Below the pieces are notes generated by a model that ran no database searches, was not told the DNA's origin, and saw only the letters and a list, made by a program, of their open reading frames with translations. Below, piece after piece: positions 1,786-39,388 of a stretch of DNA of 64,000 nucleotides. Source of the DNA: Candidatus Omnitrophota bacterium. Its GTDB lineage: Bacteria; Omnitrophota; Gorgyraeia; Pluralincolimonadales; Pluralincolimonadaceae. Position 1 is the first letter of the stretch; the number at the start of each line of letters is the position of its first letter. Made by a program: the position numbers and the translations under genes. Location of the stretch: positions 17,503 to 81,502 of the forward strand of contig JBAZFB010000006.1 of NCBI GenBank assembly GCA_041653595.1. Reading direction: 5' to 3'.

Positions 1786-2009
1786 TTCGGCGCCTGTTTC
1801 ATCGCCTGTTTTTTCGCCTTCCGGATCCTATATCGTTTATAGAATACGAGCCCGGTGTGGACGCATGCCAGGACAAATGTCGCGGCGGCCATTATCTCGT
1901 GGACCTCAAAATCTATTCGGGTGATCCCGAGCGCCGCGGTCACGGCAAGGCAGATAAATGCCGCGATGCCGGTATAGATTATCCAATCGTATAATTTGGG
2001 CATACCCAT
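1782..2009 (-). CDS. small membrane protein (2 TM), unknown function
   Basis: 75 aa with two hydrophobic helices and a basic C-terminus. Divergent from the exosortase gene. Confidence 0.3.
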   Translation of the reverse strand: MGMPKLYDWIIYTGIAAFICLAVTAALGITRIDFEVHEIMAAATFVLACVHTGLVFYKRYRIRKAKKQAMKQAPK

Positions 2010-2055: not shown

Positions 2056-2883
2056 ATGATAAATTGGATAATTTGGGTATTGGTCGCGGGGCTCTATTCG
2101 CCGGTCATCTCCCAGCTTTACAGGGCGCGATGGGAAAGCATAGACTACACCCACGCCTACTTCATCCTCCCTGTCTTCTTCGCCTTCCTCCTCTTCAAAA
2201 GAAAACAATTCGGGCAAGGTCCCTCCGCAGAGGGAGACACCTCAAATTATAGGACATCGATCATTGCGCTTTTTATTTTAATCGTCGGCCTGTTGATGTT
2301 CATATTCGGCTGGAAGTGGGATTACCTGATGATAACCACAGGCTCGATGATACCGGTGCTCTTCGGGCTGGTTTTGTACCTCTACGGCCCGTCTACGGCG
2401 AAAATAACGGCATTCCCGATATTATACCTGTTATTGCTCGTCCCGCCGCCGCTGGGCGTCCTCGATTCAATAACAATGCCCATGCGCTACGGAATCTCCA
2501 TCGCGACGGAGCACATTTTAAAGGCCTTCTGCATCCCGATAATCCGCGACGGGCTGATGCTCACCGTCGGCGGCCACGAGGTCTACATGGGCGCGCCGTG
2601 CAGCGGTTTCCGCTCGCTCATAACGATGTTCTCGCTCGCCCTTGCCTACGTCTATTTCATAAACGCGCGCCTGCGGAACAAAGTGATCCTCGTCATCTCG
2701 GTCGTCCCGCTCGCGCTTCTCGGTAACCTCATCCGCGTGACAGGGATGTGCCTCGTCACCTATAAATTCGGCGAAGAGACCGGGCACAAATTCCATGACA
2801 CGAGCGGCCTCGTGATATTCGTCGTGCTCATTCTCGGCCTGCTGGGGATAGAATCCCTGCTCGAAAAGAGGCCCAAAAAATGA
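2056..2883 (+). CDS. exosortase (EpsH/XrtA-family transpeptidase)
   Basis: 275 aa with 8 predicted TM helices. Conserved exosortase active-site motifs: Cys in GAPCSGFRS, Asn/Arg in LLGNLIRVTG. Followed by an EpsI gene and convergent with a PEP-CTERM protein gene. Confidence 0.8.
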   Translation: MINWIIWVLVAGLYSPVISQLYRARWESIDYTHAYFILPVFFAFLLFKRKQFGQGPSAEGDTSNYRTSIIALFILIVGLLMFIFGWKWDYLMITTGSMIPVLFGLVLYLYGPSTAKITAFPILYLLLLVPPPLGVLDSITMPMRYGISIATEHILKAFCIPIIRDGLMLTVGGHEVYMGAPCSGFRSLITMFSLALAYVYFINARLRNKVILVISVVPLALLGNLIRVTGMCLVTYKFGEETGHKFHDTSGLVIFVVLILGLLGIESLLEKRPKK

Positions 2884-3539
2884 AGAGCTCAAAAGCGATC
2901 ATTGTAATAACGCTGATCGGCCTGACGATGCTCGTAAGCTTCGCCCTGCCCAGGCCGAAATACGAGAGCCCGGATATCCTCTCAAAGCTCGAGATACCGG
3001 CAAGTTTCGGCGCCTGGCGCTCGCGCGACGCCTCATCGCAGGTCCAGACAGGCGGCGATGTCTATAATTTCGTGAGCCGCGTCTTCGCCCGCGAATACGC
3101 GCGGCCCGCATACATTTCCCTGCTCGATAAGGGCTACGAGGGACTGCTCTTCCTCATCCTGGGCGCCGGGAATTTCCATAACCCGAAAGTCTGCTACGGA
3201 AGTTCCGGCTACAAGACAACGGACCTGCCGGATATCGAATTCGACGCCAACGGCCATAGATTCAAGGCGTCGGCCGTCTTCTTCGACAGGCCGGGCAAAA
3301 GCGTCGTGATCACTTATTGGATAGTTATAGATAAGAAACAGGCGGGCTGGGGCCAGCAGAAGATCATCGAGCTCTGGTCGTCTTTATTAGGAAAGAAAAA
3401 GGCAGGTTTTATGTGCCGGATCGATATCCCGGCCACGGCCGATACGACAGACAAGGCCGTAAATCTCGCGAAAAGCTTCATCTCCGCTATCGCCCCGTTC
3501 ATCCCTCAGGACCAGGCGGAATATCTCTTCGGCAAATAA
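2880..3539 (+). CDS. exosortase-associated EpsI family protein
   Basis: 219 aa with an N-terminal TM anchor and a periplasmic domain. 4-nt overlap with the exosortase stop. Position and architecture are typical of EpsI in PEP-CTERM loci. Confidence 0.65.
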   Translation: MKSSKAIIVITLIGLTMLVSFALPRPKYESPDILSKLEIPASFGAWRSRDASSQVQTGGDVYNFVSRVFAREYARPAYISLLDKGYEGLLFLILGAGNFHNPKVCYGSSGYKTTDLPDIEFDANGHRFKASAVFFDRPGKSVVITYWIVIDKKQAGWGQQKIIELWSSLLGKKKAGFMCRIDIPATADTTDKAVNLAKSFISAIAPFIPQDQAEYLFGK

Positions 3540-3542
3540 AAG

Positions 3543-3580
3543 GAGACGTTTCAAAAAGGGCTACATGAAACGTCCCCGAA
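3543..3580. terminator. bidirectional stem-loop terminator between convergent exosortase operon and PEP-CTERM gene
   Basis: GACGTTTCA-(12 nt loop)-TGAAACGTC, a 9-bp perfect stem. On the minus strand it is followed by TTTTATTTG. It lies just 3' of the EpsI stop. Confidence 0.4.
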
Positions 3581-3656
3581 TTATTACTTCCTGCGCAATC
3601 TCTTTAAGCCAGGAACAAAACTATTATCAATCCCGGAAATGCCGCTTTCCCGTCCT

Positions 3657-4211
3657 TCATTTCCTTAATCCCTTTTTGCGTATACGTCTTATGAATAAAA
3701 TCGTTCCGCCTGTAACAAATAATATAGAAGCCACGGGTTCAGGTACCGCAATGGGATCACCGCCGCCCTGATTATGCCAATCTTGATCGCTACCTATAAA
3801 TTCCGGCCACGTCCACCAATCCTGTTCTGTATAAGTCAGGATCTGCCTTTGGACGACTTGCCCATTTAAGGATGCCTGATAAAGAAATTGGGTCGAGCGC
3901 GACGACACGTCATTATCAAAATTCAGATAGAACCTCAGCCAGTTTGAATCTGGGCCTACAGCATACGCCTCGGTATTTGAAACAGTGAAGTTTTGCCAGT
4001 TAGAATCGGTAAAATTGGTGAAGGTAGGGGTCGTAAATGTATCATCTGCCTGCCAGAAAATCTGCATCTGATCAAATGCGCCTACCGGAGCACTTTTATA
4101 GATTTCCGTGCTCGACTGCTGGAATAACTGGTTCCAGGTGTTGGCTGACGCAGCACCGGTAGCAAACATCGTCAAGATCGCAACAAACATTACCATAATA
4201 ATCTTTTTCAT
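3657..4211 (-). CDS. PEP-CTERM sorting-signal protein (exosortase substrate)
   Basis: N-terminal signal peptide (MKKIIMVMFVAILTMFATGAASA). C-terminus VPEPVASILFVTGGTILFIRRIRKKG is a PEP motif plus TM helix plus Arg/Lys-rich tail. Preceded by a 170-nt AT-rich upstream region. Confidence 0.8.
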   Translation of the reverse strand: MKKIIMVMFVAILTMFATGAASANTWNQLFQQSSTEIYKSAPVGAFDQMQIFWQADDTFTTPTFTNFTDSNWQNFTVSNTEAYAVGPDSNWLRFYLNFDNDVSSRSTQFLYQASLNGQVVQRQILTYTEQDWWTWPEFIGSDQDWHNQGGGDPIAVPEPVASILFVTGGTILFIRRIRKKGLRK

Positions 4212-4380
4212 TTTGCCACCTCACCTTATTTAAATAAGTTATTATTGTTCCTTATTAAGAATATGAAATAACACGGAATTATCCTCAGGAAGGTGTCATT
4301 CAAAGCAACGTGCTTATTTTAACAGATACTAAGATTTTGTCAATTGAAATAATTGCGATTTTTATAGCATTATTTTGCTG

Positions 4381-5493
4381 TTATCCGTTGGAGATTCCAA
4401 CCTCTCCTATCTCCTGATAAACCTTAAGCGTTTCTTCCGCTATCTTATCCCAATCGTATTTCTGTTTCAGCAATTCTATCTGGCGGGATTTCTCTTCTTC
4501 AGTCATCGGTTTTGCAATAAAGTCGTTCATCCTTAAGAATAAACCCTCGACATCACCTGCCATGAAATATCTCTCCTCGGAAAGGCCTACCTCCCTATTG
4601 GCCGGAATATCGCTGACTATGCAGGATAGTCTATAACTCATTGCCTCAAGGAGCGCTATAGGCAGGCCCTCATAATATGAAGGCAGTACAAACAGCCCAG
4701 CATGGCTGTAAAGCTCCTGCAGCGTTTTGCCTGTAATAAATCCGGTCAGGACGATATTCGGATTCTCGGCCGCCTTTCGCTTTAGGTCCAGGCTGTATTT
4801 ATCCTCATGGTCCGACTTCCCTGCAATGACAAGTTTCCATCCACCAGGGAATGTCCTCGCTATAAGGTCATGGAACCCCTTCTCCGGCACAAATCTGCCC
4901 ACTGCGAGAATATATTTGCCTACCCCAAGTCCATATTTATCCAGAGCCTCCCGCGTCTTCGCCGCTTCCGGAATTATGACTCCGTTGGGTATATCGCTTA
5001 TATCCCTCTTGAAATTCTTTCTTAATCTTTCGGCATTTGCTTTAGAAACAGAGATGACCCCATTCGCCCATGTGACCCCAAGATACTCTCCAATCATCAG
5101 TATATATTTTGGCAGTCCGGCCCATTTCTTCCTGAGATGTTCCGGGCCATGGCTCGTCATTACCGCCTTCATACCCAGCATCCTAACCATGGGTACGCAT
5201 AACGACGGCCCGCTAGCATGGATATGGACAATATCAGGTTTTAATCTTATTGCGGCTAGAACACCTTTAAACGTATGGACAAATGCCTCGAGAAATTTAT
5301 TACTCGGGCAGGTAAGGGGAATGAATTTAACGCCTTCGAATTCCTTTATGGAAGGATCAACATACTGTGCTCTCGTAAAAACAACTACTTCACAACCCCT
5401 CGCGGCCAGTCGCGGATAAAGATTCTCGCAGTGCGCTTCTACCCCGCCCTGCACACCGGGAAACCCACGCGTGCCCAAAACTGCGATTTTCAT
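4381..5493 (-). CDS. glycosyltransferase family 4 (DUF1972-type N-terminus)
   Basis: 370 aa. N-terminus MKIAVLGTRGFPGVQGGVE.HCE.L. C-terminal GT-B E-x7-E region YYEGLPIALLEAMSYRLSCIVSD. AT-rich cassette. Confidence 0.7.
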   Translation of the reverse strand: MKIAVLGTRGFPGVQGGVEAHCENLYPRLAARGCEVVVFTRAQYVDPSIKEFEGVKFIPLTCPSNKFLEAFVHTFKGVLAAIRLKPDIVHIHASGPSLCVPMVRMLGMKAVMTSHGPEHLRKKWAGLPKYILMIGEYLGVTWANGVISVSKANAERLRKNFKRDISDIPNGVIIPEAAKTREALDKYGLGVGKYILAVGRFVPEKGFHDLIARTFPGGWKLVIAGKSDHEDKYSLDLKRKAAENPNIVLTGFITGKTLQELYSHAGLFVLPSYYEGLPIALLEAMSYRLSCIVSDIPANREVGLSEERYFMAGDVEGLFLRMNDFIAKPMTEEEKSRQIELLKQKYDWDKIAEETLKVYQEIGEVGISNG

Positions 5494-6452
5494 CGTTTCA
5501 TTATCTTATTCTTTAAAACCCATAGCGCCGGAACAATTATGTTTTTTTTCATCGCCGGAGAGACCGAGCCTATCATCCAGCATTCTTTTTTGCACTCCCT
5601 AACGGCCTCGCGGACTTTCTCGGCTTGTCCGCCATTCCATATCTCGTTAAATGGTTTTTCCCTGATGTTACCCATGCTCATATCCACGCCGTTACACGGC
5701 ATAACATTACCGAAAGGATCTATGAAAAATAGATCCGTGCCAACCTCGCAGGGTAATAACCTTTTGTTGCCATGCGCGTAATTCAAAAGGCCATAATTAA
5801 AATACGCCCTGAACCAATTCTTCGGCCGACCACCCTTCAGTAAATTCGTAATCAACTTTTCCAATTCCCTGTCAAAATCGTCTAATCTGGTTATTTTATT
5901 ATCGAATTTATGGAAATAATACGTATTATGGACCGCGGCAGTCGCAAATTCCAGTCCCATCTCTTCGCTCAACTTATGGAGGTCCATAAGATCAAGTATG
6001 TTTCGGTCGGACAGGGTGATTCCAAAACCTATGTCTTTTAACCCCATTTTTCTGAGCTCTTTCAGGGTCCTTAGCCCATGCTCGAATCCGTCCTTTATTC
6101 CGCGAAGTTCGTCATTGGCCTTCTGAAGGCCTTCCATGCTTACCCTAATACCTATCTTCGGATATTGTCTCGCCAGATCCACTATCTTCTCAGTATAATA
6201 ACCGTTTGTGCTGATAACTATTCTTTTTGCCTTCTTACTCATCACCTCGACAAAACTCTTTATATCTTCCCTTATAAACGGCTCTCCGCCCGTTATATTA
6301 CAGAACCTCACACTTGGCAGAGACTCCAGATCCGAGGGCCTTATCTCTTCCTCGGGTCTCGTGGGATGCATCCATGTGTTACACATGTGGCACTTCGCAT
6401 TGCACCGATAAGTTATGGCTATGAGGGCTTCCTTAGGTTTATTTATCGCCAT
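5490..6452 (-). CDS. radical SAM enzyme with C-terminal SPASM/twitch-like Cys cluster
   Basis: CxxxCxxC motif CNAKCHMC near the N-terminus. C-terminal Cys-rich region (PCEVGTDLFFIDPFGNVMPCNG...CKKECWM). Start codon overlaps the upstream stop (ATGA), embedded between GT4 and GH genes. Confidence 0.75.
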   Translation of the reverse strand: MAINKPKEALIAITYRCNAKCHMCNTWMHPTRPEEEIRPSDLESLPSVRFCNITGGEPFIREDIKSFVEVMSKKAKRIVISTNGYYTEKIVDLARQYPKIGIRVSMEGLQKANDELRGIKDGFEHGLRTLKELRKMGLKDIGFGITLSDRNILDLMDLHKLSEEMGLEFATAAVHNTYYFHKFDNKITRLDDFDRELEKLITNLLKGGRPKNWFRAYFNYGLLNYAHGNKRLLPCEVGTDLFFIDPFGNVMPCNGVDMSMGNIREKPFNEIWNGGQAEKVREAVRECKKECWMIGSVSPAMKKNIIVPALWVLKNKIMKR

Positions 6453-7896
6453 CCGCGCCTCCGCCTCTTTCGATCTCTATCGCCGTAACCGATCTGGGCT
6501 CCAGCAGAATCTGAAATTTATTTGATTTTATTAAAAACTTTCTGCTTTTTATAACTACATCGTTATGCGGCGGCTTTTCGTTTGTTGAATCAATCGATTT
6601 CCCGGTTAAAACCCATTCACCGGCTTGAGACGATGGATTGAACCCGCGCAAATCTATAGTCAGCTTTTCTCTTTCGTTCAGATTCCTGTTTACCAGCATA
6701 ATATAAAGTTTGCTCCTGTCGTTTATTGTGCTTACGTTAACCGATACATATTTGTTTTTACTCAAAGAACATTGTACAAGCTCCTTGCCGAAATGCTTTG
6801 CGTACATTTCGAATACATAGTAGTTCGGTCTCTTAAAATAACTCTTACCAAGCTCGGACTCCCTACCGCTAAAACGGTTCGATACCATGCCCCAATATTC
6901 GTTTATGTAATTCCAATAATTTGCGCACAAAATATTATTCTCCGGTTTCATGAATATTCGCAGGAGCTCGGCATTTACAAGCGCGGTCCCCAGGCAGTGC
7001 CTGTAAGGTACCGGCTTTTGCTGAACAAACCATGCCGTAAATTCCGTGACGGCTATGGGCCTATCTTTCCCTGTGATGGACTTTATTATATTGTGCGTGT
7101 TCTTTATATCCTTCTCGATAGCCATGCCCTTGGTGAAAAGGTTTTCATATATTTTATTGGAATCCTGATTTGGGCTGTTATTTTTGCCGCCGTGAGGATA
7201 ATAATGCTTTACTATAAAATCAAACCTGTCACCGACCATCTTTACCACGCTCTCGTCCCAATCCTTCTCATAGCCGACTATTCCAAGCATGAGATTCGGA
7301 TTGATCGACTTAAACATATCATAATAATGCAGGTACCTATCAACATATTCTTGCGGTTTTAATATGAAGTAACTCTCGTTCCCTATCTCGATATATTTAA
7401 CTTCCGGATAATGCACTTTTAAATACTCCGCCAACCTTTTGTAACTATCTTCAAGCCACAGGTTTTGCAAGCATATAATAGGCTCTGCCCCTATTTCCCT
7501 GCAGAAACCTATCTGATCATCAAGCCCGAACTTATACTCCTTATTCGATAAACTCGGCACACCCTTTTCCCAATCCGTGAATTGTCCACTAAGCCTTATC
7601 ATGCGTATGTCTATGTTTTTTATAAGGGCAAGAGGCTCTTCGCAAAACTTTGTTCCATCCCTGATCCCGTAGCCATAGTCTGCTGCAATTCGATAGTTCG
7701 GGATCTTTTCACGGCCGTTATTCGCCTCCCACCCAAGAATGCTGGTGCCGTAAACCCTGGGGTTTACATTTTGGGTTTTGGCTGAGGCGTCTATGATAAG
7801 AGTTATCGTTTCAACCTTGTCGGCCGGCAGCACGCAAAAAACACATGCGCTCAATATGAATACCAATATTGTGAAAAATAATAGCGTCTTTCTCAC
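6439..7896 (-). CDS. secreted glycoside hydrolase, clan GH-A TIM-barrel (family uncertain)
   Basis: 485 aa with a signal peptide. The IEIGNE motif is consistent with the clan GH-A acid/base NE(P) strand. Embedded in the glycan cassette. Confidence 0.5.
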   Translation of the reverse strand: MRKTLLFFTILVFILSACVFCVLPADKVETITLIIDASAKTQNVNPRVYGTSILGWEANNGREKIPNYRIAADYGYGIRDGTKFCEEPLALIKNIDIRMIRLSGQFTDWEKGVPSLSNKEYKFGLDDQIGFCREIGAEPIICLQNLWLEDSYKRLAEYLKVHYPEVKYIEIGNESYFILKPQEYVDRYLHYYDMFKSINPNLMLGIVGYEKDWDESVVKMVGDRFDFIVKHYYPHGGKNNSPNQDSNKIYENLFTKGMAIEKDIKNTHNIIKSITGKDRPIAVTEFTAWFVQQKPVPYRHCLGTALVNAELLRIFMKPENNILCANYWNYINEYWGMVSNRFSGRESELGKSYFKRPNYYVFEMYAKHFGKELVQCSLSKNKYVSVNVSTINDRSKLYIMLVNRNLNEREKLTIDLRGFNPSSQAGEWVLTGKSIDSTNEKPPHNDVVIKSRKFLIKSNKFQILLEPRSVTAIEIERGGGADGDK

Positions 7897-7902
7897 GATC
7901 GA

Positions 7903-9114
7903 TTATACTCCGTATAGTTCTAGTATCTTTTTTTCCAGAATATCGGCGCCAAATCTCTCGTTAACCAGCTCCACCGCTCTAGCGCCTTTCCTCTCGCGCA
8001 TATCGCCGTCTTCTATAAGTATATTTAATCCGTGCGATATACCGTCAACCATGTGCGAGTAGCTGCCTATCGGCACCTTTATGCCAACTTCGTCATTCAC
8101 GCTGATATCGGGCCCGCCATAAGCGACGCAAACAACCGGCAGACCACTTGCCATAGCGTCCAGCACTACTGTTCCGCCGGGATCCTGAAGGGCCGGAAAC
8201 AGAAAAATATCGTAATCAACGAACATGGCCCTGTATTTTTCTAAAGGCACATGCCCAATAAACTTTATAACCCCCGAGAGGCCTTTTCTGTCGACGTATT
8301 CACGCAAACTTTTACTTAAAGGTCCGCTACCCGCTATATGAAACTCGTATCGCGCGCTAACTGCGTTACCCAGGGCTTCTACGGAATCGATGGCAAGCCA
8401 GACACCTTTATGCGCTGTGAGCCTGCCGGCGAATAAAATTTTAACCGTTCCGTCTTTATTTCCATTTGATCCTTTTGCCCGTTTTTTAATCCTAGTGTCA
8501 ACCATAGTATCGAAAATCTCGAGTATTTTACCTTCGCACCCGGATGGCAACAGTGGCCTCATATATTTTGTACCTATGATAATTTTTGACGCTTTCCTAA
8601 AATATTTCCGCCACCCAGGAATAACCGTTATAAACGATGCGATGAGGGACTTGCCCAGGTACAACAAGACTTGGCCCCTATAGGCGCGAATTGTGCGGAT
8701 ATCTAATTTCAGGCCGCCGCCCACCGGCCCCACATAGACCGGGACTTTGAACTTATATAGATCATTGAAGTAGTATATGCCTTCCGGAGTTAAACAATGT
8801 ATAACATCTATTCCGCCATCCTTTAATATGGCCGCTATTACTCTTCGACAATTTATTATAAATTCCCGATAAAGCATAAGATATCCAAGGCCTATCTTAT
8901 TCCAGGGCTCATACCGGTGCCTCTTTGTATCTACGTAAAAGAATTTTACGTTTCTTAAACTATCACATCTTTCAATATCTTCTTTATGATGATTGTCTAC
9001 TATTGCATATACTTCGCAATATCTTGAAAGCACCTCTACCCACGATGCGGCAACATGGCATTCGGAACCTATAAAGAAATTCAGGTCGTAAGCAACCACG
9101 ATCACTTTTTTCAT
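7903..9114 (-). CDS. glycosyltransferase family 4
   Basis: 403 aa. GT-B C-terminal motif QDPGGTVVLDAMASGLPVV. Confidence 0.7.
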   Translation of the reverse strand: MKKVIVVAYDLNFFIGSECHVAASWVEVLSRYCEVYAIVDNHHKEDIERCDSLRNVKFFYVDTKRHRYEPWNKIGLGYLMLYREFIINCRRVIAAILKDGGIDVIHCLTPEGIYYFNDLYKFKVPVYVGPVGGGLKLDIRTIRAYRGQVLLYLGKSLIASFITVIPGWRKYFRKASKIIIGTKYMRPLLPSGCEGKILEIFDTMVDTRIKKRAKGSNGNKDGTVKILFAGRLTAHKGVWLAIDSVEALGNAVSARYEFHIAGSGPLSKSLREYVDRKGLSGVIKFIGHVPLEKYRAMFVDYDIFLFPALQDPGGTVVLDAMASGLPVVCVAYGGPDISVNDEVGIKVPIGSYSHMVDGISHGLNILIEDGDMRERKGARAVELVNERFGADILEKKILELYGV

Positions 9115-13051: not shown

Positions 13052-13061
13052 AGTGTTATGA

Positions 13062-14051
13062 TCATTTTACTGCAATTGCATCCTTTGGATATTTATCAAT
13101 AGCAGGTATTTTTCTAAAAACGCCGCCTATAAGACATAGCGATATGACGCTTATATTTATAAGACTTAGCACGGCTTGATGAACGCTCCCCTTCTTTATG
13201 CTTATACCTATGAATAAAAGACAGGCTAAAACCGTAAAAACAATGCGGGAATTTCCGCTGTTAATGAAAATACCTGTCGTTATACATACCGCCAGTATTG
13301 TGTAGACAATATACGGCATAAACCTGTCCCAAATAACCCCGAATTCTCCGTTATATAAAACCCAGGAAAACGTATCACCCATACCTTGCCATAAATTGTT
13401 TCTAATACGACGAGTCGTTTCTTTAAATGTTTTTCTTGGAATAGAATAATGATATATGGAATCGTACGGAAGATAATATAACTTGTATCCCAGCTTTTTT
13501 AGGCGCCACGACAATTCCGCCTCTTCCTCTGCCCTTAAGAACGGGTGGAATCCTCCGGCTTCCACAAGATATTTTCTGCGAAAAACAGCGGACTGAAATA
13601 CATAACTTACCTGCCTTTCATATTTAAGCCCTTTGCCATCTCTGGAAACGTGCGGCTCGGAACGCTCACCATCGGCTGTTACATAGATGTCATATTGCTT
13701 ACCCATTACTGCCGCAACATCATTATTAGCTTCAAGAAAACCTATGGCCTCCTCTGCCCATCCATTTACCAGCTCCATATCCCCATCCATAAATAACAGG
13801 TATTCTCCGCAAGCATAATTTGTTCCTGTAAAACGCGCCGCAGAAGGGGACAATTTCCACGAAGGCCTCATTCCAATAATCCTGATCGGGTAACTCTTCG
13901 CAATATCTACTGTATCGTCACTTGAGTATGAGTCTATAAGAATTATTTCGGATTTATCAATATTTTTTATCGTTTGCATAACGGATCCGATACAGCGGCC
14001 TATGTTCTTTCCCTCGTTCCTGGCTATTATTATGCAGCTTAGCTGCGACAC
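13062..14051 (-). CDS. glycosyltransferase family 2 with C-terminal TM helices
   Basis: CIIIARNEGKNIGRCIGSV...LIDSYSSDDT...FMDGDMEL: a GT-A fold with DxD. Confidence 0.75.
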   Translation of the reverse strand: MSQLSCIIIARNEGKNIGRCIGSVMQTIKNIDKSEIILIDSYSSDDTVDIAKSYPIRIIGMRPSWKLSPSAARFTGTNYACGEYLLFMDGDMELVNGWAEEAIGFLEANNDVAAVMGKQYDIYVTADGERSEPHVSRDGKGLKYERQVSYVFQSAVFRRKYLVEAGGFHPFLRAEEEAELSWRLKKLGYKLYYLPYDSIYHYSIPRKTFKETTRRIRNNLWQGMGDTFSWVLYNGEFGVIWDRFMPYIVYTILAVCITTGIFINSGNSRIVFTVLACLLFIGISIKKGSVHQAVLSLINISVISLCLIGGVFRKIPAIDKYPKDAIAVK

Positions 14052-15472
14052 TTTCCCGCCCCTTCCGATTTGCGATTATTTTTTACCGTGATTCCGTGGC
14101 GCGAGATGTCTATGTTGGTAATTTTGCATATCAACTTACGTATATATCTGCGGATAAACATGGAAACGCTTATCACGGCGTAAGTTAGGCTAAGGAACGG
14201 ATCCTCCCATGATAGTACGGCCTCTACTGCCTCTCTTGTTGCCAGAGACCTGATCTGGGTAAAAAAAGGCAAATGATATATGGATTTTTTATCCAGGCTG
14301 TACGCTGCCAGATATTCTAACTCGCCCTTTATATAAAACCATTTTGTTTTTAACTTATTAGCCTTATACTCTCCAATACTGAGTCCGGAATATTCCTGAT
14401 ATTGCATGGCTACAAAATTCATGCCACGAAAAGCCGCAAGTGACATCCAGTGATTGGAGCGCGGATTAAGCTCAAGGAATTTATAGGCGCCGTCCCTTGC
14501 GTCGTATTTAAACTCCGTCTCTCCTATGCCTTTATAGCCTATCGCGCTGACATATGATTTGGTGTACGACTCTATTTCGGGACAATCAATCTTTTCTCCG
14601 AAGGTACATATGCCAAAATCTGCCGGAAATTGCCTGATCTTCTTCGAGGAGAATAAGCGCATGCTGCCCGATTTATCCGAATAGAACTTACACTCAAATA
14701 AAGTTTCACATAGTCCCGGTATCTCTTCCTGGATTATTACCTCAAGCCCTCTACTTAGAACATCTTTAGCCCTGCAAATCAACTCTTCCTGATCGTGGCA
14801 TACAAGCGCCTTGACATATTCATATACATGCATAAACTCATGAATCTTGCTGATCTTTCCACCTTCCATATTAAACCTGGCAATAGGTTTAATTATAACC
14901 GGGAACCGCAGCTTACCCTCCCACGAATCAATATCCGCGATATCCTTCAGAGATAAAGTGCGCGGGACAGGAATCCCGAGGTCCCTAGCTTTCAGATACA
15001 TTTGCCATTTGTCAAATCCCCAGAATAAAGCATCTTTTTCCAGATATGGATACTGATAATATTCCTCAAGCACTTTCTTATTGCTCGATATAAGAAAAAC
15101 GGAAATGTCATCGCATGGAAATAATACGGCTTTTTTAACTTTTTTACCGAGATCAACCAAAAATGATACGAAATGTTCGGGTTCCCTGGCCGGGTCGGGA
15201 CAGCGGCGAGCTTGAAACAGCCGCGATGACGACATGAAACTGTGTCGATGGTTCAGTCCAATTATGGGAACGCTTCTATCCGCCATATAAATACTGCGTA
15301 CCGCGCCGTAACCACATACTGTTTCATATGGATATACTAAAGCCGGGACATTATTTACTTGTTTTTGCAACTCTCTCTCCCGAATGATCGTAGAACCAGA
15401 ACCATAATATCCTAATATTATTGACGTAGCCGCGGTCCTGCGCGCCAAGTTTCTTCGCCATGCTTTTGGCAA
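14039..15472 (-). CDS. ATP-grasp domain protein (carboxylate-amine ligase type)
   Basis: FPVIIKPIARFNMEGG, EEIPG and GIGETEFKYDARDGAYKFLELNPR match ATP-grasp signatures. The annotated start overlaps the upstream gene by 120 nt, so an alternative start near 15286 (MADRS) is possible. Confidence 0.6.
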   Translation of the reverse strand: MPKAWRRNLARRTAATSIILGYYGSGSTIIRERELQKQVNNVPALVYPYETVCGYGAVRSIYMADRSVPIIGLNHRHSFMSSSRLFQARRCPDPAREPEHFVSFLVDLGKKVKKAVLFPCDDISVFLISSNKKVLEEYYQYPYLEKDALFWGFDKWQMYLKARDLGIPVPRTLSLKDIADIDSWEGKLRFPVIIKPIARFNMEGGKISKIHEFMHVYEYVKALVCHDQEELICRAKDVLSRGLEVIIQEEIPGLCETLFECKFYSDKSGSMRLFSSKKIRQFPADFGICTFGEKIDCPEIESYTKSYVSAIGYKGIGETEFKYDARDGAYKFLELNPRSNHWMSLAAFRGMNFVAMQYQEYSGLSIGEYKANKLKTKWFYIKGELEYLAAYSLDKKSIYHLPFFTQIRSLATREAVEAVLSWEDPFLSLTYAVISVSMFIRRYIRKLICKITNIDISRHGITVKNNRKSEGAGKCRS

Positions 15473-16019
15473 ATCTGTTATCGGTCTTAACGTACCATCT
15501 CACTCCCTTATACCCCCTATCGCACAGAACAGCAAAGCCCGATAGGTAGGAATTCATTGTTATACTTCTCTTCACGATAAAGTCCCTGTCTATAAGCAGG
15601 CCATAAAGATACGGGACTTCATTAAGCATATCGCCTCGGGCGATTTTTGGATAGATGTGATCTCTGGAATTATCACTGCACCATGAAATAGCCACCAATT
15701 TACCTGATAAGAGCATGGCAAAACATAGCTGTTTCTCTTTAAATCTTATTTTCACGTCGTCAATAAGCAGCCTGTCCCAGAAAGCCTCTGTCCTTATGAG
15801 CTCAACTAATTCATCATAGCTTCCTATAATCACGAATTTCTGATCTGCTGGAAGGATAACTTGCGATACGGGAGATTTAAAATCCTTGAAGTAATAAGTG
15901 GACTTGCTGAAAGAAACCGGAGGAAAAAGAAACCAGAAGAACGCCTTGATATTTTTAGTGACCGCGGCAATCAGTGGATATCTCTTCCTTAGGCTGTTAT
16001 TTATTTGAAAGCTTATCAT
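15351..16019 (-). CDS. putative acyltransferase (GNAT/FemAB-like fold)
   Basis: 222 aa. A weak GNAT-like motif around RFAKSMAKKLGA. First gene after a stem-loop and an A/T-rich upstream region. Confidence 0.35.
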   Translation of the reverse strand: MISFQINNSLRKRYPLIAAVTKNIKAFFWFLFPPVSFSKSTYYFKDFKSPVSQVILPADQKFVIIGSYDELVELIRTEAFWDRLLIDDVKIRFKEKQLCFAMLLSGKLVAISWCSDNSRDHIYPKIARGDMLNEVPYLYGLLIDRDFIVKRSITMNSYLSGFAVLCDRGYKGVRWYVKTDNRFAKSMAKKLGAQDRGYVNNIRILWFWFYDHSGERVAKTSK

Positions 16020-16103
16020 AAATCATTTTGGGTATAACATACCTTTTATTGTTAATAATTGCATCAATAACGCTATGACGGTATCCGCATATTCTGTAGT
16101 CAT

Positions 16104-16143
16104 GGGACGTCCCCCGTCAGAAGCGGGCATTGGGGGACATCCT
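16104..16143 (-). other. stem-loop between BY-kinase-like gene and downstream cassette
   Basis: GGACGTCCCCC-(16 nt)-GGGGGACATCC, an 11-bp stem with one G-T pair. No U-tract follows, so it is not a classic terminator. Confidence 0.35.
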
Positions 16144-16150
16144 ATGCGCT

Positions 16151-17731
16151 CTACACCCTCTCGTATATGGCCTTCGGAATGGCGAAGGTGCGGCTGCCCA
16201 AGATTGCTCCGAGGAAAACGACTTTCCTCTTAGAGATTGCTTCAAGCGCTTCGCTCCCTCGCAATGACTCTACGGCCTTCTGCGCGGCCTGGCGGCGGGT
16301 GCGGCCTTCCTCGACTATGAACACCACGCTGTCGACGTGCTGGCTTAATACGATGGCATCCTTCGCTTCCCTAAGGTTTGCGCAATCCACAAATACCACC
16401 TCGTATTTTTCCTTGGCATGGTCTATGAGCACGCCCATTTTCTGGGATTCCAGCAGGGTGCCCGGGTTCATGTTTATTTTGCCGCTGGTCAGGACGGCGA
16501 GGTTTTCGGTAATGTTATTGACCGCCTCGTCAAATGAGACCTTTCCTTCGAGCACATCCACAAGGCCTTCTTTGTTGGCGATCTTAAAAGCTGTATGGAT
16601 GGCGGGTTTACGCAGATTGGCGTCAATGACAAGGACCTTCGGCCTGCATTTATTGGAGATGCTTTTCGCGATGTTCATTATGGCCATAGTGACCCCTTCT
16701 TTCGGATAAGCGGCGGCTATTATAACCGACTTTAACTTCCTGTCCTTCAATTCAAAGCAAAGTTGGTCCGATATATGCTCGTAATCGTTCGGCTTTGGTT
16801 TCTTCGGGATAGAGCCGAGGAAAGCCACATTCAACGTCCGCTCGATATCTTCCGGGCATTTGAATGTCTGGTCCATATAATCAAAACCAAACGCGAGCAT
16901 GACGCCGAGGAATATGCTCATAAAGAACGCTAGGATAAGCATAAGAACCTTTGGCAGGCCGGTCGGCTTTATCGGCGGTATCGCCTGCTCGATTACCTTT
17001 ACGCTTGCCGGGCCGATAGCCTCGATGTTTGGCAGCGTCTGGCCGTTTAAGCTCTTCTCCATCTGCGCTATACTGTCTCTAAGCTGCATGACCGCTAGGT
17101 TCTTCTCTCCGTATTTCATCTGCATCTCAGCTAACTGCTGTTCGAGGTCGAATATGACATACGAGCGGCTAATGATATTGGCAATAGCCGCGGCGATGCC
17201 CGGGTCGAAATCCTGGTAGGATATCGTAAAGAGGTTTGTGTCGCGGATCGGCTCAACATTGACGTTTTCTTTTAGCTCCTCGATGGCAAGGCGGAATAGG
17301 ATGCTTTGTTTCTGCTGTTCGGCCACCTTTGGGTCGGTGGTCTTCGCGGTTATCTCAGCGAGCTGCTTATTTAATAAGGCGACCTTCAAATCAATAATGG
17401 CTTTGCATGGCGGGCTGGCAAATTTCTTTTCGAAATCGAGCGGCTTGAGGCCGATTGCTTTAAGCGTGCGCTCGAGAACAGGCATTGACTTGACTATCTC
17501 GCTCTGGGTAAGGGCAACCTGTATGTTCTGCATACCGATGAGCGGGATGTAATATGGCGACTCTACTCCCTTCTGCGCAGTTACGGACATCTTGACCGTC
17601 GCCTGATACGTCGGTGTCTTTATCCACAACCCAAGTGCCATGACAGCCGTAACAGTGATGATGGCCATGATAATGACCCATTTCTGCCTGAAGATAACTT
17701 TCAGGTAATCTCTTAAAGTTAATTCGTCCAT
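16151..17731 (-). CDS. polysaccharide co-polymerase (Wzz domain) fused to BY-kinase-like P-loop domain, possibly catalytically degenerate
   Basis: N-terminal TM plus Wzz/periplasmic coiled-coil region plus second TM. C-terminal VLVIDANLRKP (Walker A') and VVFVDCANL (Walker B-like). The Walker A reads YPKEGVT with Val where Lys is expected. There is no C-terminal Tyr cluster. Confidence 0.7.
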   Translation of the reverse strand: MDELTLRDYLKVIFRQKWVIIMAIITVTAVMALGLWIKTPTYQATVKMSVTAQKGVESPYYIPLIGMQNIQVALTQSEIVKSMPVLERTLKAIGLKPLDFEKKFASPPCKAIIDLKVALLNKQLAEITAKTTDPKVAEQQKQSILFRLAIEELKENVNVEPIRDTNLFTISYQDFDPGIAAAIANIISRSYVIFDLEQQLAEMQMKYGEKNLAVMQLRDSIAQMEKSLNGQTLPNIEAIGPASVKVIEQAIPPIKPTGLPKVLMLILAFFMSIFLGVMLAFGFDYMDQTFKCPEDIERTLNVAFLGSIPKKPKPNDYEHISDQLCFELKDRKLKSVIIAAAYPKEGVTMAIMNIAKSISNKCRPKVLVIDANLRKPAIHTAFKIANKEGLVDVLEGKVSFDEAVNNITENLAVLTSGKINMNPGTLLESQKMGVLIDHAKEKYEVVFVDCANLREAKDAIVLSQHVDSVVFIVEEGRTRRQAAQKAVESLRGSEALEAISKRKVVFLGAILGSRTFAIPKAIYERV

Positions 17732-18447
17732 TAGAATACCCCCTCTTCGACCTGCACGATGTCGCCGGGTTCGAGGACGACGTCGTTAGCGAGGCCGTTC
17801 ATTATGAGTTTCATGTTGACCTTTATCATATCGTAACCCGCGCCTTTGACTTTAGGACGAAGGACCTTTACGCGGCTTGAGGAGCCGTATCTGGTGAAGC
17901 CGCCGGCGCTTGAGATCGCCTTGAGGACCGTCATATTATCCTCGAGCAGGTATGTGCCGGGCTTTAAGACCTCGCCATAGACATAAAATTTTTTGCTTTG
18001 GGATTGCTTGAGCGCTACCGAAACGACCGGGTATTTCAGGTAGCCGTCGGCGAGGCGACTCTGTATCTCATCCTGGATTTCAGCCGGCGTCTTGCCTTTT
18101 ACCTCCACCCTGCCGATATACGGGAACGTTATCGAGCCGTCCGGCGATACCGTTACCGTAAGCGCCATCTGCTCCGGCTGGAGGACGTTTATATCGAGGA
18201 TGTCGTCAACGCCGACTTTGTATTCTTTGGGGCGTGCGGGCTGAGGCGTTACTGCCTCAGCGATGGGGGCAGAGTTAACAAGAGATGGACCTGTCCCCTC
18301 CTGTGCAACGGGGATAGTCCCGGCGCGTGGAGTCGCCGCCTGCGGGATGGCTGCCTTCGGCTGGGCGAAATCTGACCGTTTTATCGTTTCGTCAGCGAAT
18401 GCCACGCTTGCGATAAACAAAAACACGAGTATTGCGTACCTCATCAC
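17731..18447 (-). CDS. polysaccharide export periplasmic protein (Wza/EpsE family, short form)
   Basis: Signal peptide. Poly_export motif PGDIL.I.V....L plus an SLBB-like region. ATGA overlap with the downstream gene. Confidence 0.8.
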   Translation of the reverse strand: MMRYAILVFLFIASVAFADETIKRSDFAQPKAAIPQAATPRAGTIPVAQEGTGPSLVNSAPIAEAVTPQPARPKEYKVGVDDILDINVLQPEQMALTVTVSPDGSITFPYIGRVEVKGKTPAEIQDEIQSRLADGYLKYPVVSVALKQSQSKKFYVYGEVLKPGTYLLEDNMTVLKAISSAGGFTRYGSSSRVKVLRPKVKGAGYDMIKVNMKLIMNGLANDVVLEPGDIVQVEEGVF

Positions 18448-19805
18448 TTCGCTCCTTTCGCTAATAAGACTACGGGGATTGTTTTAAAAAATACTTTCAG
18501 GTCCAGCCAAATGGACCAGTTGTCGATGTATTGCAGGTCGAGTTTCATCCATTGGTTGAAATCTTTTATCTCGTTGCGGCCGCTCGTCTGCCAGAGACAG
18601 GTAAGCCCGGGCCTCATGCTCAGGCGCCGCCTCTGCCAATTATCATATTTATCGACCTCGTTAGGGATAGGCGGCCTCGGGCCCACGACGCTCATATCTC
18701 CACTGAGGATATTCCACAATTGCGGCAACTCATCGAGACTGAACTTCCTGAGGAGCCGGCCAATCGCCGTAATACGAGGATCGTTTTGCATCTTGAAGAC
18801 CGGCCCACCCATCTCATTATATTTCTGCAGTTCCGCGAGTTTCTCTTCCGCGTCGCTGACCATCGTCCTGAATTTATAAAAAATAAATCTCCTGCCGTTC
18901 AGCCCGCAACGCTTCTGCTTAAAGAAGACCGGCCCCGAAGAAGTCGCTTTTATCGCGAGCGCGATTCCCAAGAATACCGGCAATAAAATTATAAGCGCCA
19001 AGCCCGAGACGACTATATCAAAGGCCCTTTTTACGAATAATTCTCCAGCCTTGTCAGGCGCGCTCTCGAACGTCAGCATCGGTATGCCGAAAAACTCGGT
19101 CTGCTTCGCTTTCGCGAGTTTCAATTCATACAGGTCGACGACTACGCTCGCGGGTATACCTTCTATCTCGCACATGCGTATGAGGTCCTCTATCTTCTCG
19201 AACCAGAGCCGCGGCACGACGAATACAACGTGATCTATGACGTTGCGGTGCAGGATGTTCGCCATGTCGCCGAACTCGTCCTCATCTATCATCCGAGTAA
19301 TCTTAAAACCCCATTCGCCGTGCTGTCCGACAAGTTCGGCAAAATTCTTCGCCCTCCTGCCCGTCCCGACGATGAGGATGTTCCTAGTGTTGTATCCCTT
19401 GCTCCTAAGGAACCTGAAAAACATTACTATGACTACCTTCTCAGCCGCGAACAGGACGAGCGAAACGCCGATTATCAAAAATAAGAACGTCCTGCTTACG
19501 TCGTGGAGCTTTACCACGTATACGACACTGCTGAACACCACGAAACCGAAGAACGCTGCCTCGAAAACTATCGAAATCACGTCGCCGATCGGCTTGGTCC
19601 GGAACGAATTATACATTCCGAGGAAATGCATAAGCCCCACCCATACCACGACAAAATACGGCAGGAGGCGAAGGTAATCCTCGAGCGGATATAGCTGTTT
19701 CATTTCATTACTCAAAAAATACGCAAGGATAAATGATGCGGCCGCCAGCACCAGGTCCGCGAAGATCATTAATTTCCTGAATATGTCCGCGTGTTGTTTA
19801 AGCAT
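18444..19805 (-). CDS. undecaprenyl-phosphate sugar phosphotransferase (priming glycosyltransferase, WbaP/EpsB-like)
   Basis: N-terminal TM bundle. C-terminal bacterial sugar transferase motif DELPQLWNILSGDMSVVGPRP. Confidence 0.85.
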   Translation of the reverse strand: MLKQHADIFRKLMIFADLVLAAASFILAYFLSNEMKQLYPLEDYLRLLPYFVVVWVGLMHFLGMYNSFRTKPIGDVISIVFEAAFFGFVVFSSVVYVVKLHDVSRTFLFLIIGVSLVLFAAEKVVIVMFFRFLRSKGYNTRNILIVGTGRRAKNFAELVGQHGEWGFKITRMIDEDEFGDMANILHRNVIDHVVFVVPRLWFEKIEDLIRMCEIEGIPASVVVDLYELKLAKAKQTEFFGIPMLTFESAPDKAGELFVKRAFDIVVSGLALIILLPVFLGIALAIKATSSGPVFFKQKRCGLNGRRFIFYKFRTMVSDAEEKLAELQKYNEMGGPVFKMQNDPRITAIGRLLRKFSLDELPQLWNILSGDMSVVGPRPPIPNEVDKYDNWQRRRLSMRPGLTCLWQTSGRNEIKDFNQWMKLDLQYIDNWSIWLDLKVFFKTIPVVLLAKGAK

Positions 19806-20929
19806 TAAAATTCAGCGGCCAGCCCGAGAGTGACACGATTTTTCAAATATCCGCCGAGCGGGACGGACGATGTCTCATGTGTGTATGAATAATCGGCGGT
19901 TGCCTTCCAATGGTCGTTGATGTCATAAGTCAATCCTGCGCTGGACCCGATGAGATGCGTCACGCTTGACGCCCCGATATATTCGCCGCGGCCGTAAAAA
20001 GCCGAAAGCGTCCCGCGCAATTTCTGGAAAATTTCGTGCGAGAGCGCGCCCGAAACCCGCCACTGATCGAAAAGGTCCTGCGAGTACGAAACCGTATCAA
20101 ACCGTTTGCTGAAATAGAGCGACGCGCGTGTGCGCTCGCTGAAGTCGTCGGAAAGCGAGACTTGCACCATCGGCTTCGTATATCTCCTGCCGCTGAAAGA
20201 ATTAATGAAATCCACTCCGCCCACACCGTCGAAATACAACTGTTTCGTGATGTATTTGCGCAGGCCGCCGCTCAGCGTATTGACCCTGGTGTTCGCACCC
20301 GGGCTGAAGTCACGGGCAGTAAAATCATACGCCCCGATGAAAGTCAGGTCCGAGCCGACGATATATGCGCCTTCGACTCCGGCCGTATTTAAATATGATT
20401 TCGGGATGTCGGTGCGCGAATATGTGTTGTATTCGTTCGAATACCGCAATGAAGCGCCGAAATGCTCCGAAATATCGCGCGCATAGCCGAGGTTCACGCG
20501 GTTCCTCGTCGAACTGTATCGCCCGCCCGTCCTCCCGAACACATCCTCGAAACTGCGCGGCTCTTCCGTGCGCGAAAACGAGTCGGAAACGCTTATCCTG
20601 TCGAACTTCGACAGCTCGGAGTTGACAGACGCGGTAAAATCGCCGCCGTTGTTGTTGAAACCGTGCTTGTTGGCGTAAAATTCGTGGTAATAGCGGCCGC
20701 TCGCCGTGAAAACCGTGGTCTTGTTGTCGTAAGAGGCGCTGAGGCCGACCCACGGCCTGGTGATATAATCTTTGATCTTGCCGACCTTTACGTAGGTGAC
20801 ATTATCATCGTAGGTTTCGGAGACTCCACCCCTTAACATAACGTCAATATTACTAAGGCGGTATGCCCACGCATTGCCCGAAATCAGGCAAATAACCATC
20901 ATCACTGCGAAAACGGCACTCTTTTTCAT
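19805..20929 (-). CDS. outer-membrane beta-barrel protein, PEP-CTERM locus EpsL-like
   Basis: Signal peptide (AWA). Alternating beta-strand pattern rich in Y/S/T/G. C-terminal ...TLGLAAEF ends in Phe as in OMPs. First gene of the export block. Confidence 0.5.
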   Translation of the reverse strand: MKKSAVFAVMMVICLISGNAWAYRLSNIDVMLRGGVSETYDDNVTYVKVGKIKDYITRPWVGLSASYDNKTTVFTASGRYYHEFYANKHGFNNNGGDFTASVNSELSKFDRISVSDSFSRTEEPRSFEDVFGRTGGRYSSTRNRVNLGYARDISEHFGASLRYSNEYNTYSRTDIPKSYLNTAGVEGAYIVGSDLTFIGAYDFTARDFSPGANTRVNTLSGGLRKYITKQLYFDGVGGVDFINSFSGRRYTKPMVQVSLSDDFSERTRASLYFSKRFDTVSYSQDLFDQWRVSGALSHEIFQKLRGTLSAFYGRGEYIGASSVTHLIGSSAGLTYDINDHWKATADYSYTHETSSVPLGGYLKNRVTLGLAAEF

Positions 20930-39274: not shown

Positions 39275-39292
39275 TTTCCCTCCTAATTAGAA

Positions 39293-39321
39293 AGCCCGGA
39301 CTGCGAAGCGCAAGCCGGGCT
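39293..39321 (-). other. intra-operon stem-loop downstream of hydA (possible attenuating terminator)
   Basis: AGCCCGG-(15 nt)-CCGGGCT. On the minus strand it is followed by TTCTAATT. Confidence 0.3.
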
Positions 39322-39388
39322 AAAGATGTTACTTTCAGCCCCTTGGCCTCAGAGTCGCCTCCTCGCCGCAGGTATGTCTGGTTACCGC

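Follow-up and report, generated by a model that had tools for sequence, protein, structure and literature searches.

An exosortase and its PEP-CTERM substrate beside a surface-polysaccharide locus with an exchangeable low-GC centre in a Candidatus Omnitrophota genome

A stretch of 64,000 nucleotides from the genome of a Candidatus Omnitrophota bacterium (GenBank assembly GCA_041653595.1, contig JBAZFB010000006.1), referred to here as the window and numbered from its first letter, carries at positions 2056–20929 an ordinary, well-preserved locus for the synthesis and export of a surface polysaccharide, which adjoins an exosortase gene and the gene for one target protein of the PEP-CTERM type (Table 1). 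Every open reading frame (ORF) named in a first-pass annotation of the same DNA was recovered in the ORF map, and its general picture of an exosortase, EpsI and a PEP-CTERM substrate beside a Wzx/Wzy-type locus with a compositionally foreign centre was borne out. It had also called the system complete, which is not demonstrable: the models of all named exosortase subtypes failed, a single substrate is visible and no PrsK, PrsR or PrsT regulator was found among the scanned ORFs of the window. Taken as a whole, the locus is best explained, with a probability of about 0.78, as a native sorting module and a native export core with an acquired block of low GC content between them.

Table 1. Features of the locus, with positions in the window and the main basis for each assignment (aa, amino acids; scores in bits)
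Feature	Positions	Strand	Basis
DUF7544 polytopic membrane protein	421..1479	-	PF24400 E 1e-53; divergent from exosortase
Two small ORFs between DUF7544 and exosortase	1489..2009	-	ORF list; 98 aa (1489-1785) and 75 aa (1782-2009, two hydrophobic helices)
Exosortase, 275 aa, nearest XrtB/XrtV, predicted Cys transpeptidase	2056..2883	+	PF09721, TIGR02602, invariant motifs
EpsI, N-terminal membrane anchor	2880..3539	+	TIGR02914, PF11984; overlaps exosortase stop codon by 4 nt
Low-GC replaceable block, substrate and 10 biosynthesis genes, 12.5 kb	3657..16150	.	GC content at third codon positions, homology break, differing cassettes in relatives
PEP-CTERM substrate, 184 aa	3657..4211	-	Convergent; Sec signal peptide (…GAASA/NTW), probably beta-rich core, C-terminal sorting tail
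Sorting signal VPEPVASILFVTGGTILFIRRIRKKGLRK	3660..3746	-	PEP motif, hydrophobic helix, basic cluster; fits clade consensus
Sigma-70-like promoter candidate (TTGACA-16-TG-TAAAAT)	4316..4343	-	In 170-nt gap upstream of PEP-CTERM gene; 11/12 positions and extended -10
GT4 glycosyltransferase 'GT4c', triad member	4381..5493	-	PF00534/PF13439
Radical SAM/SPASM enzyme	5490..6452	-	PF04055 and PF13186
Secreted or membrane-anchored GH51-like glycoside hydrolase	6439..7896	-	PF06964 (Alpha-L-AF_C) 55.7
GT4 glycosyltransferase 'GT4b'	7903..9114	-	PF00534 85
GT4 glycosyltransferase 'GT4a', triad member	9111..10364	-	PF00534 126
Polytopic membrane protein, 500 aa, candidate Wzy (Wzy_C/O-antigen-ligase superfamily)	10321..11823	-	About 11 hydrophobic segments
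Wzx-type (MOP) flippase	11795..13051	-	PF01943 84, PF13440 74
GT2 glycosyltransferase	13062..14051	-	PF00535 82
ATP-grasp-like ligase	14039..15472	-	PF02786 21.6/19.8; true start probably downstream of listed TTG
222-aa ORF (orf222), function unassigned	15351..16019	-	ORF call
PCP-2a-type co-polymerase fused to degenerate BY-kinase-like domain	16151..17731	-	PF02706 40; TIGR01007 111.6 vs cut-off 108.05
Short OPX, 238 aa, Poly_export and SLBB only	17731..18447	-	PF02563 (83), PF10531, PF22461
Priming polyprenyl-phosphate glycosyl-1-phosphate transferase	18444..19805	-	TIGR03025 420.3 vs cut-off 295.55; PF02397 239
Outer-membrane beta-barrel, BBP2_2 family, 374 aa	19805..20929	-	Signal peptide, C-terminal Phe; PF10082 42.1 vs cut-off 23.7

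The exosortase is recognized by the Pfam family PF09721 (Exosortase_EpsH; E 1e-52, 179.5 bits against a cut-off of 25.7), by the generic model TIGR02602 (130.6 bits, cut-off 105.55) and by the signature TIGR04178 (68.3, cut-off 23), and has about seven hydrophobic segments. The Cys, Arg and Asn motifs reported in the first pass were located at C182/R186 (PCSGFRS) and N224/R227 (GNLxR), and these residues, together with H247, are invariant in an alignment of 22 homologues. The protein stayed below the cut-offs of the named subtype models: XrtA (TIGR03109) gave 119.6 against 208, XrtB (TIGR03113) 163 against 275 and XrtV (NF035943) 152.7 against 313, and the identical protein at NCBI is named only 'exosortase/archaeosortase family protein'. 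EpsI, whose start overlaps the exosortase stop codon, passed TIGR02914 (55.7 against 42.8) and PF11984 (64.2 against 26.1), in keeping with the adjacent EpsI annotated earlier, and fell below the cut-offs for EpsI type B (NF045609, 52.9 against 220) and type V (NF045608, 44.1 against 228). Since all models of named exosortase subtypes and both EpsI subtype models scored below cut-off, the clade to which this enzyme belongs is an unnamed subtype within the known family.

The product of the convergent gene has the complete architecture of an exosortase substrate: its translation reads MKKIIMVMFVAILTMFATGAASA/NTW ... AVPEPVASILFVTGGTILFIRRIRKKGLRK, with an N-terminal signal (MKK...GAASA/N) and, at the extreme C-terminus, VPEP-VASILFVTGGTILFI-RRIRKKGLRK. 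It had been described as ending in a textbook PEP-CTERM signal, and the tail itself was upheld by two models, but the C-terminus had been placed too early, the protein ending in ...RKKGLRK and not in ...RKKG. TIGR02595 scored 16.6 bits on the whole protein, a marginal pass of its cut-off of 16, and 21.6 on the isolated tail, so that both matches on which the first-pass annotation had been staked, that of the enzyme to exosortase models and that of the tail to a PEP-CTERM hidden Markov model (HMM), were obtained, the second of them marginally. Pfam PF07589 matched neither the protein nor the isolated tail at E up to 10, in a search in which the HMMER filters may drop matches this short. Because the TIGR02595 pass was only marginal, an independent clade HMM was built from 90 tails of proteins encoded beside related exosortases in other genomes; among the 795 stop-to-stop ORFs of the window it gave the substrate 36 bits (E 1.8e-10) and detected no further PEP-CTERM ORF, in agreement with a regular-expression scan and with the single substrate counted originally. 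A full-length homologue of the substrate lies beside the exosortase of another locus (L028; E 3.8e-36). A single-sequence AlphaFold2 (AF2) model of the protein was unusable, with a predicted local distance difference test (pLDDT) score of 44. The promoter candidate upstream of the gene is the top-scoring site of the region, the total counts of promoters and terminators there are not above chance, and a promoter of the gene's own is only suggested; a site in this gap would agree with the finding that most PEP-CTERM genes form single-gene transcription units preceded by long intergenic stretches (Haft 2006; PMC1569441).

A scan of GTDB species representatives with the exosortase family profile returned 80 loci at 40–81% identity, from Omnitrophota, Brocadiaceae, other metagenome-assembled genomes labelled Planctomycetota, Nitrospirota/Thermodesulfovibrionia and a few others. 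Of 77 related loci, 71 have an EpsI homologue after the exosortase gene, and 39 loci contain between them 91 PEP-CTERM ORFs, with medians of 210 aa for length and 1.3 kb for distance; all but six of these ORFs (85/91) lie within 5 kb of the exosortase, usually in tandem arrays of two to seven. The constant partners of the clade are EpsI and tandem small PEP-CTERM genes. The 91 neighbouring tails conform to the consensus [VT][TVA]PEP[IVL]S[ST]xLF[LI]xGG(G/A)xLAxRRxR+K, which the tail in the window fits.

On the far side of the locus lies the export core, in which the components needed for a Wzx/Wzy-type pathway (priming phosphoglycosyltransferase, PGT; polysaccharide co-polymerase, PCP; outer-membrane polysaccharide export protein, OPX) are present alongside the Wzx of the cassette. 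Such a pathway had been proposed, and its PGT, Wzx, GT2, three GT4, radical S-adenosylmethionine (rSAM)/SPASM, Poly_export/SLBB and Wzz domains were confirmed by matches to their models. Several of the finer labels required amendment. The outer-membrane protein (OMP), called EpsL-like before, has no match to EpsL (TIGR03014) and scores 35.3 against a cut-off of 90.85 on TIGR03016 (PEP-CTERM-associated OMP), leaving PF10082 as its family. The protein called Wza/EpsE does carry OPX domains, but it is a 238-aa short form and lies below the cut-offs of the EpsE (101.9/262.65), EpsY (103/320) and XrtA-associated export (TIGR03027, 117.9/180) models; by analogy, it probably works together with the adjacent beta-barrel as an outer-membrane conduit. 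The order OMP-PGT-OPX-PCP is also found at locus L037 and in the contigs of sister genomes described below.

The PCP had been annotated with a bacterial tyrosine kinase (BY-kinase), and whilst the co-polymerase and a BY-kinase-like fold were both recovered (E about 3e-20 for the kinase-like domain against CapB), the autokinase motifs were not. Compared with CapB, the Walker A sequence PGAGKS is replaced by PKEGVT, with Val in place of the Lys, Walker A' DGDMR by DANLR and Walker B DTPP by DCAN, and the C-terminus (...IPKAIYERV) has a single Tyr nearby and no Tyr cluster. These losses are common to all 11 of 11 aligned homologues, from Omnitrophota, Brocadia and others. With the Walker A Lys lost and the Tyr-rich tail missing, the cytoplasmic domain is, as far as its motifs tell, a fused BY pseudokinase, in which the partly retained Walker A' and B aspartates might still allow residual nucleotide binding. 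The PCP also carries a 9-aa insertion near its C-terminus (around ESLRGSEAL) that is not present in its homologues at L082 and L083.

Between the sorting module and the export core lies the cassette of biosynthesis genes. The candidate Wzy has no direct match to a Pfam or NCBIfam HMM; when remote homologues were collected with phmmer and then scanned against Pfam, 27 of 40 matched PF04932 (Wzy_C), a family that spans polymerases and ligases. The description 'Wzy-like' thus holds through homologues and not through a direct match, and the protein is, by transitive homology, a candidate Wzy_C-like polymerase. The 'GH' of the first pass could be specified as a distant relative of GH51 arabinofuranosidases, for which PF06964 and alignments of residues 120–476 with alpha-L-arabinofuranosidases (GH51) in the PDB (E 4e-10) both speak, and homologues of it lie near the exosortase in six loci. 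The assignment of an ATP-grasp protein is weakly supported, PF02786 being passed and PRK06849 and PRK12767 matching with E-values from 1e-11 to 1e-8, none of them reaching its cut-off. The ORF at 15351–16019, taken for a GNAT protein, has no acetyltransferase-family match; indeed orf222 matches nothing in Pfam up to E 1 or in NCBIfam up to E 10, has no homologue in 85 loci, and its AF2 model (pLDDT 42) was too poor for a fold search.

Whilst exchange of the cassette was confirmed, as set out below, its content proved not to be an arbitrary mix. Two GT4 genes with the rSAM/SPASM gene form a triad that lies convergently downstream of exosortase-EpsI in 8 of the 44 loci whose downstream sequence extends over 8 kb or more, and in several shorter ones. 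The triad-bearing exosortase loci belong to both Omnitrophota and Nitrospirota, with the GH51-like gene in between in several; orthologues there are 55–63% (GT4c), 43–58% (rSAM/SPASM) and 42–59% (GT4a) identical to those of the window, and loci L020 and L071 reproduce its gene order. Outside this setting the rSAM enzyme has thousands of homologues at 60–78% identity, including proteins of Ruminiclostridium josui, Pseudodesulfovibrio, Actinobacteria and Woesearchaeota. In R. josui a 62%-identical rSAM enzyme is encoded between two GT4 genes (37–41% identity), in a polysaccharide locus that also encodes a Wzz/kinase protein, CpsB phosphatase, a priming transferase and Wzx but no exosortase. As the triad recurs both downstream of related exosortases and in exosortase-free genomes, it is a conserved module and not a random assortment. 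The wider module at 4381–10364, GT4-rSAM/SPASM-(GH51-like)-GT4, was also seen in L008, L015, L018, L020, L032, L062, L064, L071, L084 and L085, at 42–71% identity, across Omnitrophota, Nitrospirota and an unassigned contig with a GC content of 0.34.

No NCBIfam family reaches its cut-off on the rSAM enzyme, its weak matches in the PDB are SkfB (the best), cytosylglucuronate decarboxylase and BtrN, and nothing was found in the literature on the rSAM of this triad. The match to SkfB raises maturation of PEP-CTERM peptides as a role, which was ruled out as the leading interpretation by the occurrence of the triad in the R. josui locus, where there is no exosortase. That locus also ruled out a triad specific to exosortases, as did rSAM homologues at 60–65% identity in Firmicutes, Actinobacteria, Desulfobacterota and archaea. 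From its gene context the enzyme is most likely a glycan- or sugar-tailoring enzyme rather than a peptide maturase, and its chemistry appears to be undescribed in polysaccharide synthesis. A more far-reaching proposal is that GT4-rSAM/SPASM-(GH51-like)-GT4, which in this clade repeatedly stands in convergent orientation just after exosortase-EpsI and the array of PEP-CTERM genes, is an uncharacterized, phylum-spanning glycan-tailoring unit that could build the glycan, or glycan end group, serving the exosortase as acceptor for PEP-CTERM proteins; we consider this a long shot, but if true, the triad glycan would supply the long-missing acceptor of exosortase transpeptidation.

The compositional mosaic noted at the outset is real, and it is sharper when measured as GC content at third codon positions (GC3), which is 0.39–0.52 in the 11 genes of 3657–16019 and 0.65–0.77 in every flanking gene, including those for the exosortase, EpsI, PCP, OPX, PGT and OMP and for a major facilitator superfamily (MFS) transporter and MacB. 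The low-GC block had been thought to start at 4.4 kb; it begins at 3657, and the substrate gene therefore belongs to it. A tRNA scan of the window found none, so there is no tRNA-linked island boundary. Proteins of the window have 100% identical counterparts in a Candidatus Omnitrophota metagenome-assembled genome. That the cassette can be swapped, as had been proposed, is seen in three relatives with orthologous PCP genes, each of which is followed by a different cassette, and one of which has both flanks of the window. The latter is represented by sister genomes from the samples ERZ1426817, ERZ1426832 and ERZ1426844, in which an exosortase 82–84% identical and a PCP 80% identical to those of the window are both on one 54-kb contig. 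On one side these contigs keep a resistance-nodulation-division-type membrane fusion protein (RND-MFP), MacB, MFS, OMP, PGT, OPX and PCP, and on the other EpsI, the exosortase, a 73-aa and a 96-aa protein and DUF7544. The cassette between them is wholly different, with Wzx, a methyltransferase, four GT2, a WsaF-like protein, Wzy_C and WecG, together with small proteins that include CBM96 and Peptidase_C1 and with toxin-antitoxin genes.

The other two relatives, L082 and L083, have a PCP 79% and 75% identical to that of the window and carry two further, mutually different cassettes. Their GC3 remains at 0.65–0.75 through the PCP gene and a 133-aa ORF and then falls to 0.37–0.53 in L082 and 0.23–0.38 in L083, and their nucleotide homology with the window reaches the PCP stop codon and ends there. 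From these comparisons, we infer that the low-GC block was acquired by recombination from a lower-GC donor, and that the sorted protein would have been exchanged together with the glycan genes. Locus L010, of a related Omnitrophota genome, lacks the substrate, cassette, PCP, OPX and PGT: DUF7544, the exosortase and a truncated EpsI abut a truncated OMP gene, followed by MFS and MacB (74% and 72% identical), an arrangement that looks like a single deletion removing substrate, cassette and export core together, unless it is an assembly artefact. The two stumps, in which about 122 aa of EpsI and about 132 aa of the OMP are left, overlap head-on at 10827–11591 of L010. It was also observed that the ERZ1426817 and ERZ1426844 contigs have ORF6N, Fic, Zeta toxin and a 23S_rRNA_IVP/bAvd-like gene inserted among the core export genes, and a ParE toxin-antitoxin pair adjoining EpsI; these selfish or defence-type genes are absent from the window.

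On this gene content, and drawing on knowledge of the families for the cleavage, the acceptor, the pairing of OPX with barrel and a scaffold role for the pseudokinase (PMC1569441; PMC9601211; PMC12004946), the following route can be proposed. Repeat units would be built on undecaprenyl phosphate by the PGT and the four glycosyltransferases, tailored by the rSAM, ATP-grasp and GH-like enzymes and flipped by Wzx, after which the Wzy_C-like protein would polymerize them under the control of a phosphorylation-independent PCP-2. The polymer would leave through the short periplasmic OPX and the beta-barrel, the barrel probably supplying the pore. The 184-aa protein would be secreted by the Sec route and stay anchored in the inner membrane through its C-terminal helix with the basic cluster until the exosortase Cys cuts at or close to VPEP and joins the protein to an acceptor, so that it would end in the cell-surface or polysaccharide layer. 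Any physical link between the sorting system and the polysaccharide is a predicted one.

Several observations weigh against this account. The assignment of Wzy is transitive and orf222 has no assigned function; the substrate clears the generic PEP-CTERM model by a narrow margin (16.6 against 16) and PF07589 is silent; and one substrate is visible in the window, when Haft (2006) calls the system present only in genomes whose PEP-CTERM proteins exceed two in number (PMC1569441). The low-GC block was traced to no donor, the best non-self homologue of the rSAM enzyme being 78% identical. Above all, the functional tie of exosortase and polysaccharide is drawn from gene adjacency, and among the 31 loci that extend at least 8 kb to both sides, just 5 have a PGT, OPX or PCP gene no further than 10 kb from the exosortase, from which it follows that the coupling to a polysaccharide locus is lineage-specific and not a property of the clade.

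This scarcity speaks for the view that the sorting module and the polysaccharide locus are neighbours without a functional tie, the exosortase sorting small surface proteins to ends that have nothing to do with this polymer and the adjacency reflecting a shared recombination hot spot. The invariant partners of the clade, as described above, are EpsI and the tandem substrate genes, and at L001 the surrounding genes encode an acyl-CoA ligase, a carrier protein and an oxidoreductase instead of exopolysaccharide (EPS) export functions. This view is nevertheless unlikely, as the layout of exosortase-EpsI at one end and PCP-OPX-PGT-OMP at the other survives replacement of the cassette in the sister genomes, an export core also stands beside the exosortase at L037, L048 and L079, and the apparent deletion at L010, with its ends inside EpsI and the OMP gene, took the substrate and the EPS genes together. 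In addition, epsH was found nearly always among EPS genes (Haft 2006; PMC1569441).

Much less probable is a scheme in which the glycan is attached to the PEP-CTERM protein or proteins, with the Wzy_C-family protein acting as a ligase-like oligosaccharyltransferase and the exosortase finishing the maturation of a glycoprotein. PF04932 covers ligases too, the protein in the window has no direct match to either kind, and the substrate gene travels in the low-GC block of the glycan genes. TIGR03097, which we take to be the putative O-glycosylation ligase of XrtA systems, did not match, however; a train of PCP-2, OPX and barrel indicates a secreted polymer of high molecular weight, and the GT4-rSAM-GT4 triad is found as well in an exosortase-free polysaccharide locus of a Gram-positive bacterium. 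Finally, it is hardly credible that the low GC of 3657–16019 arose by local drift or selection (low expression, membrane-protein bias) on native genes. In favour of this, polysaccharide cassettes tend to be AT-rich, the donor was not identified, and module genes are lower in GC3 than the exosortase at L020, L071 and L008 also. Against it, the shift falls mainly on third codon positions and is abrupt, at the PCP stop codon and in the gap that separates EpsI from the substrate gene; soluble enzymes and membrane proteins both show it, and in relatives whose flanking genes are 75–82% identical, non-homologous genes fill the same site. Acquisition of the block between two native modules remains the preferred explanation.

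Divergently from the exosortase, the DUF7544 gene keeps its position in L002, L010, L020, L081 and the sister contigs, and the same loci retain it together with the two small ORFs as a trio (421–2009); the relatives have genes of 96–101 aa and 73 aa at the equivalent place, and the 98-aa ORF is 61% identical in L002. Possibly the trio serves the sorting module as an accessory. Directly past the OMP gene, 20978–26426 encodes an MFS transporter, a MacB-type ATP-binding cassette (ABC) transporter, an HlyD-family adaptor and a TolC-like outer-membrane efflux protein; the MFS-MacB-adaptor flank is syntenic in the sister contigs, and MFS-MacB also in L010. A second low-GC island at 30263–34491 (GC 0.41–0.42, GC3 0.40–0.45) contains a 301-aa ORF without matches and a 1111-aa protein with only a weak match to a DUF900 alpha/beta-hydrolase, and is bordered by genes of native GC content (a hybrid cluster protein and a CBM30 protein). 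Further on, 35391–42881 carries HydE/HydG-like radical SAM genes, HydF, the large subunit of an [FeFe]-hydrogenase and a NuoF-like subunit, which indicate a fermentative, hydrogen-evolving metabolism of this Omnitrophota genome.

Anchored by synteny, the locus adds a clean case of an exosortase/PEP-CTERM system from Omnitrophota, an uncultured phylum about whose cell surface next to nothing is known; our literature search found nothing specific on exosortases in Omnitrophota or anammox bacteria, or on exosortases with radical SAM enzymes. It documents one unnamed exosortase clade common to Omnitrophota, the anammox Brocadiaceae and Nitrospirota, with a tight signal consensus and tandem small substrates. 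Joint exchange of glycan and sorted protein would make the cell surface more varied, as a defence against phage or predators for instance. Current understanding is not overturned, and the value lies in annotation, in the form of a model for the exosortase subtype, the recognition of a pseudokinase PCP and a probable composite OPX/barrel; the locus also flags a very widespread, uncharacterized rSAM/SPASM enzyme of polysaccharide loci.

O-antigen and capsule loci, such as cps and rfb of E. coli and Klebsiella, have conserved flanks and low-GC central cassettes that are exchanged horizontally. The locus in the window resembles them in that conserved export and flanking genes enclose a centre of lower GC content, with glycosyltransferases, Wzx and Wzy that differ between close relatives; it differs in that the exchanged block includes the substrate gene of an exosortase and a cross-phylum GT4-rSAM/SPASM-GT4 triad. 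As in the PEP-CTERM/EpsH system (Haft 2006; PMC1569441), exemplified by XrtA and by XrtB of the Methylobacillus Eps locus, a polytopic EpsH-family protein with conserved Cys and Arg has EpsI immediately downstream, a substrate with a signal peptide and a tripartite tail stands alone after a sizeable intergenic gap, and the whole is set among EPS genes. Unlike in that system, the XrtA, XrtB and XrtV cut-offs and those of EpsI types B and V failed here, no PrsK, PrsR or PrsT lies in the window, no sigma-54-type site, none having been looked for, was noted there, the phylum is Omnitrophota, and the substrates of the relatives form tandem small-protein arrays beside the exosortase. The 238-aa OPX with a barrel two genes away recalls, in its length and domain content, the composite translocons of a beta-barrel and a short OPX that lacks the D4 helix across the outer membrane, as in EpsY/EpsX of M. 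xanthus and VpsN/VpsM of V. cholerae (PMC9601211, PMC9603273, PMC12819527), and EpsY of M. xanthus is among its best named matches, yet at 103 against a cut-off of 320; the barrel in the window is a PF10082 (BBP2_2) protein of 374 aa, unlike those of EpsY/EpsX-type translocons, and the likeness is here one of genes. The PCP is comparable with phosphorylation-independent PCP-2 proteins that work with a BY pseudokinase (EcpK/EpsV, HfsB/HfsA; PMC12004946) in its BY fold, its replaced Walker A Lys and its lack of a Tyr tail, and differs from the stand-alone EcpK in that the pseudokinase domain is fused to the PCP (PCP-2a) and partly retains the Walker A' and B aspartates; fused variants are already known, for example SMc01795 of S. 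meliloti (PMC12004946). The kind of system is thus known, and what is new is modest: an unnamed, widespread exosortase clade with a defined tail consensus, a hot spot at which glycan and substrate appear to be swapped together, a fused pseudokinase PCP, a probable composite OPX/barrel and a very widespread, uncharacterized rSAM/SPASM-GT4 triad.

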